From: an uncultured delta proteobacterium
Lineage (GTDB): Bacteria > Desulfobacterota > Zymogenia > Zymogenales > Zymogenaceae
Direction: 5' to 3'
NCBI GenBank assembly: GCA_963735595.1
Contig: CAVTLK010000001.1
Coordinates: forward strand, 544,001-608,000
Length of the DNA: 64,000 nucleotides
Positions 28,458-60,457 of the stretch are shown here, in pieces (the stretch's first letter is position 1; the number at the start of each line of letters is the position of its first letter). The notes under the pieces are model-generated. The model was not told where the DNA came from. It made no database searches and worked only from the letters and a program-made list of their open reading frames with translations. A program made the translations under genes and the position numbers.

Positions 28458-28916
28458 TTATTTGTAGTGGCCGAGAATCTCGGCGATCTTGGACGGTTTA
28501 ACCATGCCGTGGACTTCTTCATCCACCATAACTACCGGCGCCAGGCCGCACGCCCCGACGCAATTAACCGTTTCAAGGGTGAAACTGCCGTCCCTGGTCG
28601 TATCGCCCGTTTTAACCCCGAGCTCTCCTTCGAACCCCTCGGCGATCCTCTTTCCCCCCGAGATATGGCAGGCCGTGCCGAGGCAAACCCTGATCTCGTG
28701 CTTTCCCCGGGGTACGAGCGAAAAGGCCTTGTAGAACGTTACGATATGATAAATCTGGGCCTCCGGGATAGCCAGCACATCGCCAAGCCGGCGGACCGCC
28801 TCGCGCGGTATGTAGCGGAACCTGGTCTGGATATCCTGAAGCATGAGGATGATGCTGGACGGCTTTGCGCCGTAACTCTTAATGACCTCGTCTACCTGTG
28901 CGACATCATAATCCAT
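28458..28916 (-). CDS. NuoE/HydC-like [2Fe-2S] subunit
   Basis: VTFYKAFSLVPRGKH, VCLGTACH, VNCVGACGLAP. Confidence 0.93.
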   Translation of the reverse strand: MDYDVAQVDEVIKSYGAKPSSIILMLQDIQTRFRYIPREAVRRLGDVLAIPEAQIYHIVTFYKAFSLVPRGKHEIRVCLGTACHISGGKRIAEGFEGELGVKTGDTTRDGSFTLETVNCVGACGLAPVVMVDEEVHGMVKPSKIAEILGHYK

Positions 28917-28919
28917 GGC

Positions 28920-29858
28920 TTACCCGTTAGTGATTTTTGCGAGCATAATGATTTTCTCGTATTCCTCGGTCACCCGTTTCTGAATAACGTCGATATCGGT
29001 ATCCGTGAGGTGTCGAAACCTCCCCTGTCCCGATAGATAGTCTTTGATCGGCCGGAGTTTCGGGATATCCATCGTCAGCCGGTATTTTCCCTCCTGAACT
29101 TCGAAGAGGGGGAACGCCCCGGTCTCCACGGCAAGCCTCCCGTACTTAATGGCCAGGTGCGACGGAATCCGCCAGCCGGTGGGGCAGACCGATAAAACGT
29201 GCAGGTAGGCCGGCCCGCCGGACTCAACCGCTCTTACCACTTTGGCCTGCAGGTCAAACGGGTAGCTCGAACAGGCGGTCGCGACGTACGGTATATTGTG
29301 CGCGACCGCGATGGCCGCCATATTCTTCTTCCACGTGTGTTGCCCGATTGATCCCTTGCCGGCAGGCGACGTCGTCGTAGACGCGCCATACGGCGTTGAG
29401 CTCGACCGCTGGATACCGGTGTTCATATAGGCCTCGTTGTCAAAGCAGACATAGACGAAGTCCTCGTGCATCCTTTCCAGCGCGCCGGAAAGCGCCTGGA
29501 AGCCGATGTCCGTGGTGGCGCCGTCGCCGCCCATCCCGACAGAGACGATACGCTTCGTGGGGATCTTACCCTTCCGCATCAGCGCCTTGAGTCCCGAGGC
29601 GACGCCCGAGGCTACCGCCCCGGCGTTCTCGAACGCCACGTGAATCCAGGGGACGTTCCAGGCCGTCAGCGGCAGGGGAGAAGAGACGATCTCCATGCAT
29701 CCGGTGGCGTTGGAGATAACGATATCACGGCCGAAGGCCTTAAGGACGTGCCGGACGGCCAGCGCCTCCGCACATCCCTGGCAGGCCCGGTGTCCCGAGG
29801 TGAAGTTTTCCGCGCGATTGGTCAGATTGGGGACATATACTGCGTATTTATCGATCAT
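28920..29858 (-). CDS. porB: Pyruvate/2-oxoacid:ferredoxin oxidoreductase beta subunit
   Basis: GHRACQGC, NATGCME, GGDGAT.DIG, DNEAYMNTGIQRSSSTP, CPTGW. Confidence 0.93.
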   Translation of the reverse strand: MIDKYAVYVPNLTNRAENFTSGHRACQGCAEALAVRHVLKAFGRDIVISNATGCMEIVSSPLPLTAWNVPWIHVAFENAGAVASGVASGLKALMRKGKIPTKRIVSVGMGGDGATTDIGFQALSGALERMHEDFVYVCFDNEAYMNTGIQRSSSTPYGASTTTSPAGKGSIGQHTWKKNMAAIAVAHNIPYVATACSSYPFDLQAKVVRAVESGGPAYLHVLSVCPTGWRIPSHLAIKYGRLAVETGAFPLFEVQEGKYRLTMDIPKLRPIKDYLSGQGRFRHLTDTDIDVIQKRVTEEYEKIIMLAKITNG

Positions 29859-57438: not shown

Positions 57439-58098
57439 ATGTATTCTATCGCCGTTTTCATCTCGGGCAGCGGCTCCAATCTCCAATCGATCATCGACGC
57501 CATCCATGACCGCCGGGTGTCGGCCCGGATCGCTGTCGTCCTCTCCAACGAACCGGACGCCTACGGCCTTGTCCGGGCGCAGCAGCACGGCATACCCACC
57601 GCCGTCGTCAACCACCGGGACTACGCGAACCGTCAGGAGTTTGAAGAGGCCGTCCTTTCGGTGCTCGGGGATTTCCCGGTCGATCTCATCTGCCTCGCCG
57701 GTTTCATGCGGCTGTTGACCCCCGGGTTCCTGAGACGATTCCCCCATCGGGTAATCAATATCCACCCCGCACTCCTGCCGTCGTTCCCCGGCACGCATGG
57801 GCAACGCGACGCCTATAATTACGGGGTGAGGTTCTCCGGCTGTACGATCCACTTCGTGGACGACGGCGTTGATACCGGACCCATCATCATGCAGGCCGTT
57901 GTTCCGGTGCTGCCCGACGACGATGAAGAAAAGCTCAAGGCCAGGATTCTGGCGCAGGAACATAAAATCTATCCTCAGGTGATTCAGTTTTTCGCCGAAG
58001 GCCGCGTAACGGTCGCCGGCAAAAAGGTCGTCATCGCCGGAGCCAAGATCGATACCAAGCTCGCGTATACCAACCCGCCACTTGAGATATTTACATGA
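57439..58098 (+). CDS. purN: Phosphoribosylglycinamide formyltransferase
   Basis: SGSGSNLQ, LAGFMRLL, NIHPALLP, HFVDDGVDTGPII. Confidence 0.97.
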   Translation: MYSIAVFISGSGSNLQSIIDAIHDRRVSARIAVVLSNEPDAYGLVRAQQHGIPTAVVNHRDYANRQEFEEAVLSVLGDFPVDLICLAGFMRLLTPGFLRRFPHRVINIHPALLPSFPGTHGQRDAYNYGVRFSGCTIHFVDDGVDTGPIIMQAVVPVLPDDDEEKLKARILAQEHKIYPQVIQFFAEGRVTVAGKKVVIAGAKIDTKLAYTNPPLEIFT

Positions 58099-58538
58099 TC
58101 TACCTGGTCAGCGCCTGTCTTGTCGGGATCAATTGCCGCTACGATGGGGCCAGTTCTTATTCGGCGAGGGTAGCGTCGTTCCTTGAGAACCGGCAGTTCC
58201 TGCCGGTATGTCCCGAGATCCTCGCCGGCCTGGGGGTTCCGCGCCCTCCCTGCCGCTTTTCCGGTGGGGACGGGCAGGCATTGCTTGCCGGCTCAGCCCG
58301 GATCATGGACGAAAACGGAAATGACCTGACCGAATCGTACCTGATTGGCGCAAACAAGGCGCTGGCGTTTGTGCGGGAGAGGGGGATTGAGTACGCACTC
58401 CTCAACGAACGCAGCCCCTCCTGCGGGGTGCACGAGGTCTACATCGGCCGCGACAAGTCCCCGGGGATGGGCGTAATGACGGCCCTGCTCGTGAGAGAAG
58501 GGATCCGGGTGATGTCCGATGAGCGGCCTTTCATATAG
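58095..58538 (+). CDS. DUF523 / thiouracil desulfurase-family Fe-S protein
   Basis: VSACLVG..CRYDG, VCPE..GLGVPR, ERSPSCG; ATGA overlap with purN. Confidence 0.9.
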   Translation: MIYLVSACLVGINCRYDGASSYSARVASFLENRQFLPVCPEILAGLGVPRPPCRFSGGDGQALLAGSARIMDENGNDLTESYLIGANKALAFVRERGIEYALLNERSPSCGVHEVYIGRDKSPGMGVMTALLVREGIRVMSDERPFI

Positions 58539-58660: not shown

Positions 58661-59584
58661 ATGAAAGCAAAGACGTTTACGATCAAGGGCAAGGGCGGGG
58701 CGAAGGTCTTCGTCTACTCCTGGCTTCCGGATTCAAAGCCGTTGGCCGCCGTCCAGATAGCTCACGGCATGGCCGAACACGCGGCCCGCTACGAGAGGTT
58801 TGCGGAGGCTCTGACGAAGTCGGGATTCGCCGTTTACGCCAACGATCAGCGTGGACACGGTAAGACCGCAGGCCCGCTGGAAAAGGTCGGCTGGGTCGCC
58901 GAAAACGACGGCTGGGACCTCATCGTTGACGATCTCCACCAACTTTCCGATACCATCCGCAAGGAACATCCCGGAGTCCCTCTCTTCCTCTTCGGGCACA
59001 GCATGGGCTCGTTTCTGTCCCGCAACTACATCTCCCGCTGGGGCGGCGACCTCCAAGGGGTCGTCCTGTCCGGTACGGGCGGAAACCCCGGCCTGCTGGG
59101 GAAGGTCGGAGCTCTCGTAGCGGGGTTAGAAAAGAAAATCAAGGGCGGTAAGGCCAAGAGCCCGCTCTTGACGTCGCTTTCGTTCGGCGCGTTCAATAAA
59201 CCATTCAAGCCCAACCGTACGGAATTCGACTGGCTCTCCCGTGATAACGCCGAGGTGGACAAATACGTCGCCGACCCCTATTGCGGCGGTGTCTTTTCTA
59301 CCGGTTTCTGGGTCGATTTCCTCAAGGGGCTGGCGGTCCTCTATCGGTCTGACTACTTCCCCAAAGTCCCCAAAAGCCTTCCCGTATACCTCTTTTCGGG
59401 GGAGAAGGACCCGGTGGGAAACAACACCAAGGGCGTGAAAGAGGTATACGACTCGTATAAGAAAGCGGGATTTACCGACGTGAGCATGAAGATCTATCCC
59501 AACGGACGCCATGAGATGCTCAACGAGACCAACCGCGCCGAGGTCTTTAAGGACGTAATCGATTGGCTCAAGAAACATATGTAA
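58661..59584 (+). CDS. Alpha/beta hydrolase (lysophospholipase-like)
   Basis: HGMAEH..RY, DQRGHG, GHSMG nucleophile elbow, GEKDPV, RHEMLNE. Confidence 0.92.
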   Translation: MKAKTFTIKGKGGAKVFVYSWLPDSKPLAAVQIAHGMAEHAARYERFAEALTKSGFAVYANDQRGHGKTAGPLEKVGWVAENDGWDLIVDDLHQLSDTIRKEHPGVPLFLFGHSMGSFLSRNYISRWGGDLQGVVLSGTGGNPGLLGKVGALVAGLEKKIKGGKAKSPLLTSLSFGAFNKPFKPNRTEFDWLSRDNAEVDKYVADPYCGGVFSTGFWVDFLKGLAVLYRSDYFPKVPKSLPVYLFSGEKDPVGNNTKGVKEVYDSYKKAGFTDVSMKIYPNGRHEMLNETNRAEVFKDVIDWLKKHM

Positions 59585-59680
59585 TAGGCGATTGATCGCG
59601 AGGCGTGTCGCGCCGCGGCTGCCGGGGCACCGTTCATAGAAATGCACATGACCAGACTCCCGATATAAGAGGAGTTAACA

Positions 59681-59896
59681 ATGACCGACAAGATCATTAT
59701 TTACGGCAAGGGCGGCTGACCCTACACCGATAAGGCCAGGGCGGCCTACGGCGATCGCGCCACCTATTACGACGTTGACCGGGACTCGGAGCGGCTGGAC
59801 GAGATGCTCGTTTATTCAAAGGGTAAACGCAGCGTCCCGGTAATCGTGGAGGGGGGAAACGTCACCGTCGGATACGGCGGCACCTGAGGGGTATGA
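59681..59896 (+). CDS. Glutaredoxin-like selenoprotein with two in-frame UGA (Sec13, Sec69); 'Uxx-star'-type
   Basis: GAGGAG RBS; MTDKIIIYGKGG-U-PYTDKARAAYGDRATYYDVDRDSERLDEMLVYSKGKRSVPVIVEGGNVTVGYGGT-U-GV*. Glutaredoxin fold motifs continue through the first UGA. Confidence 0.85.
59727..59751 (+). promoter_or_regulatory. Putative SECIS hairpin for UGA 59717-59719
   Basis: CCG.T.AGGCC-[AGGGC]-GGCCT.A.CGG; the apical loop starts 18 nt after the UGA and has G at loop position 2. Confidence 0.6.
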
Positions 59897-59897
59897 C

Positions 59898-59916
59898 GGC
59901 GCGCCGTGAGCGCGCC
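59898..59916 (+). promoter_or_regulatory. Putative SECIS hairpin for UGA 59885-59887
   Basis: GGCGCGC-[CGTGA]-GCGCGCC; the loop starts 17 nt after the UGA with G at loop position 2. No U-tract follows, so it is not terminator-like. Confidence 0.6.
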
Positions 59917-60094
59917 TAATAAGGTACTGACAAATTAACCGTTCTATCGGCCGAGGGCGCCGGTTTCCCTCGATCTACTCGGTATAACCCGATCGTCCGG
60001 TCCCGTTAATCGGAATCCCCTGCCCGGGTATTGGCGGAGGTAAATGCCGCGGGGGACTGGGCACCACCGATACCGCGGGCCTTCAGCGCCCGCA

Positions 60095-60457
60095 TCAGTT
60101 CGCCTCAAACGCGTTCCGGATCACCCGGATGCGGGGCAGCATCCCGGACAGGTCTACGGTTACCACGTCAAATCGGCAGGCCGTGTCGTCTCCTCCGCCC
60201 CGTTGTGTCAAATACATGAGCGCCGTTCGCGCGATCTTCTGCCGTTTCTTCTCGTCAACGGCCTCCTCGGGCGGGCCGTAGTCTTTCGATCGTTTCGTCT
60301 TGACCTCAACGAATACCAGATCGTCTCCGTGTCCGGCCACGATATCGATCTCCCCGTACCGGGTGCGGTAGTTTGTCTCGATAATCCGATACCCGGAAAG
60401 GATAAGCCTCCATCGGGCAATCCGCTCCCCGAGCCTTCCCTCAGTATCACGCTTCAT
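60095..60457 (-). CDS. yraN: YraN family (UPF0102) endonuclease
   Basis: GRLGE, NYRTRYGEIDIVA, LVFVEVKT, CRFDVV. Confidence 0.93.
   Translation of the reverse strand: MKRDTEGRLGERIARWRLILSGYRIIETNYRTRYGEIDIVAGHGDDLVFVEVKTKRSKDYGPPEEAVDEKKRQKIARTALMYLTQRGGGDDTACRFDVVTVDLSGMLPRIRVIRNAFEAN

Follow-up and report, generated by a model that had tools for sequence, protein, structure and literature searches.

A 71-codon gene for a glutaredoxin-like protein, with two UGA codons that very probably encode selenocysteine

The frame that opens at ATG 59681 of the window (the whole stretch of DNA analysed here, 64,000 nucleotides in length) runs through two TGA codons before it reaches a third, and this raises the question of which of the three encode selenocysteine (Sec, or U), which one ends translation, and what a second Sec might do in so small a protein. 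The 71-amino acid frame is missing from the list of table-11 open reading frames (ORFs) of at least 60 amino acids. An earlier reading of the window, made from the sequence alone, had pointed to this omission and to a GAGGAG ribosome-binding site ahead of ATG 59681, and both are seen in the sequence and in the ORF list. Translation with TGA as U yields 71 amino acids, with U13 in GKGG-U-PYT, followed by RSVPVIV and VGYGG, and U69 in GYGGT-U-GV directly before the last TGA. This reproduces the motifs given by the sequence-only reading (YGKGG-U-PYT, RSVPVIV, VGYGG, and U69-G-V-stop).

59669..59674, + strand: Shine-Dalgarno-like GAGGAG, 6 nt 5' of ATG 59681, recognized from the sequence
59681..59896, + strand: gene for a 71-amino acid UXX-star selenoprotein family 1 member with a predicted glutaredoxin fold, stop included (assigned by NF041114, PF00462, and the fold model)
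59717..59719, + strand: TGA for putative Sec13, at the N-terminal Cys position of the glutaredoxin C-P-Y-x site, here U-P-Y-T
59733..59747, + strand: SECIS-like hairpin 1, within the coding region; loop AGGGC, 18 nt past the Sec13 codon
59831..59839, + strand: S51-V52-P53, loop of the glutaredoxin cis-Pro position, with predicted pairing to the C-terminal tail
59885..59887, + strand: TGA for putative Sec69, within the C-terminal G-G-T-U-G-V tail
59894..59896, + strand: TGA taken as the true stop, with 8 nt between it and the hairpin 2 loop
59898..59916, + strand: SECIS-like hairpin 2, wholly within the 3' UTR; loop CGTGA, 17 nt past the Sec69 codon

Family assignment and locus

The protein translated with TGA as U matches the profile NF041114 ('UXX-star selenoprotein family 1') from end to end (profile positions 1–70 of 70) with 108.5 bits against a cut-off of 72, and the same gene is recovered above this cut-off in a six-frame search of the genome (94.3 bits). 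It also passes the cut-offs of NF041212 (Uxx-star glutaredoxin-like (seleno)protein; 79.3 bits, cut-off 66) and, in a profile search, of PF00462 (32.4 bits, cut-off 22.9). The profiles of families 2 (NF041211) and 3 (NF047338) and of the HUGP/GUXX-star fusion (NF045501) give 46–52 bits, far under their cut-offs of 97–325. The cut-offs for dithiol glutaredoxins (TIGR02181; 31.5 bits, cut-off 90), whose site is C-x-x-C and not U-x-x-T as here, for YruB-like proteins (TIGR02196; 28.2 bits, cut-off 88.55), and for TIGR02194 are likewise not reached. The sequence-only reading, according to which the protein 'resembles' Uxx-star proteins, had the family right and understated the link, as the curated cut-offs of both NF041114 and NF041212 are passed.

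The protein shares with NF041114 members the full-length match, the UxxT motif, two Sec, the glutaredoxin fold, and the C-terminal U-x-x-stop, which is U-G-V-TGA here (from the family name, 'star' presumably means the stop). It is a shorter form, without the three-residue insertion after helix 1 that is found in many NF041114 relatives. Its tail is the same as that of the NF041212 group, and, unlike the fused HUGP/GUXX-star members, it stands alone. We hold with high confidence, on the basis of these sequence comparisons and those described below, that the gene belongs to UXX-star family 1 and that both of its UGA codons are recoded.

The family is a catalogued one. A table in a 2026 review (PMC13188914) names NF041114 as 'Distant Grx-like protein 1', with motif UxxT and two Sec, and a 2022 review (PMC9312934) lists the same family with UxxT. 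The type of gene, both Sec, and the Thr of UxxT are already in print, and this is not a new kind of gene. A literature search for 'uxx-star', outside which Haft and Tolstoy (2025) lies, returned one review and no experimental study of the family. The name 'distant Grx' does not occur in the main text or four supplements of the 2008 GOS paper, to which PMC13188914 refers for the family, and the family terms were not found in the main text of the BSepDB paper.

The upstream neighbor of the gene, on the same strand, encodes an alpha/beta hydrolase, and on its other side the gene faces one of the YraN family. A scan of positions 59500–60150 for promoters and terminators returned none of either; purine-rich, AGGAG-like stretches precede the starts of related genes. 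A contig of the locus from another run (59560–60055) carries 30 substitutions and has all three TGAs unchanged, a comparison at the level of contigs rather than raw reads. Two genes upstream, at window positions 58095–58538, lies a member of the DUF523/2-thiouracil desulfurase family (PF04463) with Cys in its S-P-S-C-G motif; selenoprotein forms of this family are among those listed in PMC13188914.

Selenocysteine codons, hairpins, and stop in relatives

UXX-star family 1 is common in the phylum. A search of 301 of its genomes with NF041114 passed the cut-off in 70, with 72 matches including the gene here; 66 of these were parsed by pattern and six read by eye, and as kin are not independent the results are given as counts and not as statistics. 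The codon at the tail site is TGA in all 72 matches. At the first site, which in an alignment with PDB glutaredoxins falls on the first Cys of their CPYC, it is TGA in 63, Cys in eight, and Tyr in one. None of the 72 has Trp at either site. A search for homologs had been proposed as a check on the sequence-only reading, and the outcome, TGA or Cys at the first site and TGA at the tail, supports two Sec. The Thr of UxxT is kept in 60 of 66 parsed matches, and P53 is invariant in the 61 proteins aligned.

Database entries present a different picture. Pattern matching of 167 database proteins finds Cys at the tail position in seven, Trp in 25, the end of the chain in 74, and another residue in 12, with 49 unparsed. 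The Trp probably comes from gene callers that use TGA=W. Callers naive to recoded stop codons miss or misread the family, with 74 of 167 relatives ending just before the tail Sec and 25 of 167 showing Trp there.

Some relatives depart from the short form in other ways. One subgroup (L005-L007, L057, L063, L065, L067, and L068) has an insertion of 11–13 residues before the tail, often with U/C-P-F-C at the first site. Its members also carry two to five extra residues past U-x-x and so end later than the family name implies.

A hairpin follows each putative Sec codon. Hairpin 1 has a stem of 5 bp (59733–59737 with 59743–59747) and hairpin 2 one of 7 bp (59898–59904 with 59910–59916) that begins 1 nt past the stop; G occupies loop position 2 in both. 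The bSECIS model, as given in the legend to Fig. 2A of PMC13188914, has a loop of 3–9 nt, a stem of 4–16 bp, G in the first two loop positions, a spacing of 16–37 nt, and an energy of at most -7.5 kcal/mol. The SECIS test applied here is our own coding of these published constraints and not bSECISearch itself. Both Sec codons pass it, with regional energies of -14.7 and -16.3, and the apical stem of hairpin 1 by itself has -7.4. The hairpins described from sequence, with loops 17–18 nt past each TGA and G at loop position 2, are thus present and fit the bSECIS model.

At a spacing of 16–22 nt, the test is passed by 53 of 66 tail sites, 39 of 58 first sites with TGA, and three of eight first sites with Cys, as compared with 54 of 600 random genomic TGAs (9%). 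A simpler hairpin test gives similar counts (tail sites, 59/66; TGA-type first sites, 40/58; Cys-type first sites, 2/8; random TGAs, 429/4000). With a background of 9%, a single hairpin of this kind is weak evidence, and it is conservation across the compared sequences that lifts the SECIS evidence above chance. Hairpin 1, which is constrained by coding and fails the test in 19 of 58 TGA-type relatives, is the weaker case of the two.

The stronger case is hairpin 2. Covariation was scored over 65 aligned sequences (all 64 relatives and the window), with the structure taken from the window sequence, which favors the hairpin somewhat. Pairing was found in 90.1% of 383 cells as compared with 32–42% when the pairing was slid, changes occur on both sides in six of six pairs, and the covariation score is 0.809 as compared with 0.09–0.17 for slid partners. 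The loop G is nearly invariant in these sequences. Family match, TGA conservation, covariation, and the SECIS test together bear out the earlier claim of a selenoprotein with two Sec, each UGA being served by a bacterial SECIS of its own.

The third TGA is of a different sort. Three codons past the tail Sec, the 66 parsed matches have TGA in 33, TAA in 16, TAG in nine, and a sense codon in eight, so that a stop is found there in 58. As TAA or TAG is used at this place in relatives, TGA 59894 is taken to be the true stop. It fails the SECIS test even over the full range of 16–37 nt, and none of the 33 TGA stops passes. These results are in keeping with the earlier suggestion that the distance to one SECIS sets the Sec codon apart from the stop, which fits the published 16–37 nt rule. 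A TGA stop beside the tail Sec is the ordinary state of the family. We also considered a reading with three Sec, by read-through of TGA 59894, and rejected it: 25 of 66 relatives have TAA or TAG there, the codon has no fitting SECIS, and the next 13 residues are unconserved. With 71 residues, two Sec, and one SECIS free of coding constraint, the gene is a handy test object for a long-range diselenide and for how SelB distinguishes the UGA of a Sec from one that ends translation only three codons on.

The surroundings of the gene in relatives vary. Among 51 flanking ORFs (the longest on each side at 28 loci), which are of mixed families, no shared operon that names a pathway was found; 12 of these ORFs are without a Pfam match, several probably being wrong-strand frames. 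The recurring flanks are nucleoside diphosphate kinase, at four loci, and an HhH-GPD repair enzyme, at three. At L019, L023, L026, and L029 the gene lies just 5' of the nucleoside diphosphate kinase, and in three of these 3' of the HhH-GPD repair enzyme, an arrangement that probably reflects shared descent.

Fold model and possible role of the C-terminal selenocysteine

The structure of the protein was predicted with AlphaFold2 from 61 sequences, with Cys in place of both Sec. The best model has a mean pLDDT of 93.4, with 79–84 for the other four, and has a four-stranded sheet along with short strands at residues 51–52 and 69–70. A second prediction, with each of the 61 sequences shortened by its last four residues, lost the 51–52 strand and was otherwise unchanged. 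Because this strand vanishes without the tail, the model implies pairing of the tail with the residues that precede Pro53. The U-G tail thus appears to pair with the cis-Pro loop, as read from the secondary-structure strings of models with Cys surrogates.

The top fold matches are small glutaredoxin- and NrdH-like chains, with Z up to 9.3 and an rmsd of 2.1 over 64 residues. PDB entries 3zij, 7c10, and 1h75 and the YruB family (TIGR02196) have the same fold (Z 8.9–9.3, rmsd ~2 Å over 63–64 residues). In a Foldseek search no match reached E 0.001, and the top rows are glutaredoxins. The x-P-Y-x site and the V-P motif are common to the protein and to small dithiol glutaredoxins and NrdH-like redoxins. 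It differs from these in having U-P-Y-T rather than C-P-Y-C and, in the model, the G-G-T-U-G-V tail where they have a C-terminal helix.

According to PMC2665069, the cis-Pro loop of thioredoxin-fold proteins is the place at which a partner adds on as a transient antiparallel strand pairing, and the residue preceding the cis-Pro is usually within 4 Å of the nucleophilic Cys. With this geometry, pairing of the tail before Pro53 would put Sec69 next to Sec13. In the scheme that we consider most likely, SelB on the hairpin 17–18 nt past each UGA would deliver Sec-tRNA for Sec13 and Sec69, while the third UGA would be too near its hairpin (8 nt) and would end translation. The flexible G-G-T-U-G-V tail would then dock on the cis-Pro loop, the partner site of thioredoxin-fold proteins, and set Sec69 beside Sec13, where a substrate Cys would otherwise sit. 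A reversible Sec13-Sec69 diselenide would make the protein a two-electron thiol/selenol oxidoreductase, with the tethered x-U-G arm in place of glutathione.

The x-U-G tail may be likened to the Cys-Gly end of glutathione. Neither gshB (TIGR01380) nor gshA (PF04262), the two glutathione-synthesis families searched, has a match in the host genome, which is 93% complete, and this makes a dependence of the protein on glutathione doubtful. Tail docking, the Sec13-Sec69 diselenide, and the glutathione stand-in, taken as one mechanism, form the likeliest reading, if by a modest margin. More tentatively, UXX-star proteins might be glutaredoxins with a built-in glutathione mimic, the tail lying in the cis-Pro groove and the Sec13-Sec69 diselenide giving a self-contained cycle in glutathione-free anaerobes. 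The tail-in-groove mechanism was not found in the literature searched, which did not extend to Haft and Tolstoy (2025), and it may be the only part of this account that is new.

Two known systems offer a comparison. The UxxU selenoproteins reportedly described by Shchedrina and colleagues in 2007 are said to form diselenides, and mammalian thioredoxin reductase has a C-terminal G-C-U-G arm. What they have in common with the protein here is either a pair of Sec that can join or a Sec-bearing, flexible C-terminal arm that acts as a redox carrier. Here 56 residues separate the two Sec, which the fold would have to bring together, and no homology to UxxU proteins or to thioredoxin reductase is claimed.

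The earlier reading had cast the tail Sec as the resolving residue of a diselenide, and had explained it as a replacement for the Cys lost from the active site. The first part gains indirect support from the pairing of the tail with the cis-Pro loop in the model. The second is too simple, as U/C-x-x-C occurs together with the tail TGA in five of 66 parsed relatives, and x-x-C and the tail Sec are also kept together in a CPYC paralog domain of the same genome (C2:755967-756173). Because the two coexist, the tail would be ancestral to the family rather than simply a remedy for a lost Cys.

Two other roles for the same pair of Sec deserve consideration. The selenols might serve as ligands of an iron-sulfur cluster or of a soft metal or metalloid (Hg, As, or Cu) and undergo no diselenide cycling, a role raised for metals in PMC13188914 and one that two Sec held close together in the model would suit as well. 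However, no metal-resistance family recurs among the 51 flanking ORFs at the 28 loci, and we regard this role as rather unlikely. The tail Sec might instead act between molecules, either by docking in the groove of another copy of the protein or by passing electrons to a separate reductase, and form no intramolecular diselenide. The tail is short and glycine-rich and is found also in members with an intact C-x-x-C (5/66) and in the HUGP fusion paralog, and its Sec is better conserved than Sec13 (72 as compared with 63 of 72), all of which would agree with an intermolecular role. In the single-chain prediction, by contrast, the tail lies on the cis-Pro loop of the same chain, confidently so in the best model, and we regard action between molecules as improbable. 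Docking within one chain remains the reading that we prefer.

Selenocysteine machinery and paralogs of the host

The sequence-only reading had called for the genes of Sec synthesis and insertion in the host, and selC, selB, and selD were found, along with a selA that is split by one base. The tRNA-Sec gene (C2:688975-689072) is the only one of 47 tRNA genes with a TCA anticodon. For selB the match is 319 bits (cut-off 242), and for selD, which has an in-frame TGA of its own, 355 bits (cut-off 125). The selA gene (458.8 bits; G000:C4:329754-331101) has its frame split by a one-base insertion near C4:330135. This base is missing from three genomes of the same genus, in which the gene is whole; in all, selA is intact in four of five relatives searched and in pieces in the fifth.

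If the insertion were real, no Sec would be made, both UGAs would stop translation, and the gene would be silent in this strain. We consider this very unlikely. Apart from that single gap, selA is 95.8% identical to the intact gene of a relative (G217), and tRNA-Sec, selB, and several TGA-bearing genes are retained. One of two tuf copies, the HUGP fusion gene, and a second copy of selD also have broken frames in the same assembly, which argues that the extra base in selA is an assembly indel; it is probably an assembly error. Still less can be said for the reading of TGA as Trp (code 4 or 25), which has in its favor W at both sites in 14 of 17 database homologs, most likely the product of callers choosing TGA=W, and which is ruled out by tRNA-Sec being the sole TCA-anticodon tRNA and by the site codons of the 72 genomic matches (no Trp at either site, and exchange with Cys at the first); a pseudogene with nonsense mutations is equally implausible, as two TGAs kept across the phylum and a covarying hairpin behind the second do not suggest decay. 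Recoding of both UGAs as Sec accordingly stands as the favored reading.

Several features of the assembly and of related genes were seen along the way. The broken tuf copy (G000:C4:550906-551806) has a one-base insertion relative to the other, to which it is 99.2% identical, a sign of assembly indel errors. The two selD copies, at C3:6046-6975 (+ strand) and C3:24665-25476 (- strand), lie in opposite orientation on the 143-kb contig G000:C3, and both have A-A-G-U-A-A-K; the copy at C3:24665-25476 has several frame breaks. Paralogs of another family lie near both (C3:2293-2697 and 28901-29326), and the arrangement may reflect either an inverted duplication or an error of assembly.

The HUGP/GUXX-star fusion gene (NF045501; G000:C2:755961-756672, - strand; L011) combines H-U-G-P with the CPYC glutaredoxin domain and ends in G-G-G-U-A-V-stop, past which lies a strong hairpin. 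It is frame-broken here and whole in four of four relatives. A glutaredoxin of the YruB family with U-P-Y-C, over the TIGR02196 cut-off, is encoded at G000:C1:780941-781491 (- strand; L012, L014). Its neighbors are a rubredoxin-like gene on one side and, on the other, a CPFC glutaredoxin domain (near C1:781100) that continues into a reductase-like frame of ~400 codons bearing GGGPAG. We take the rubredoxin and reductase labels from motifs, and the CPFC glutaredoxin-reductase frame is a candidate reductant for the UXX-star protein.
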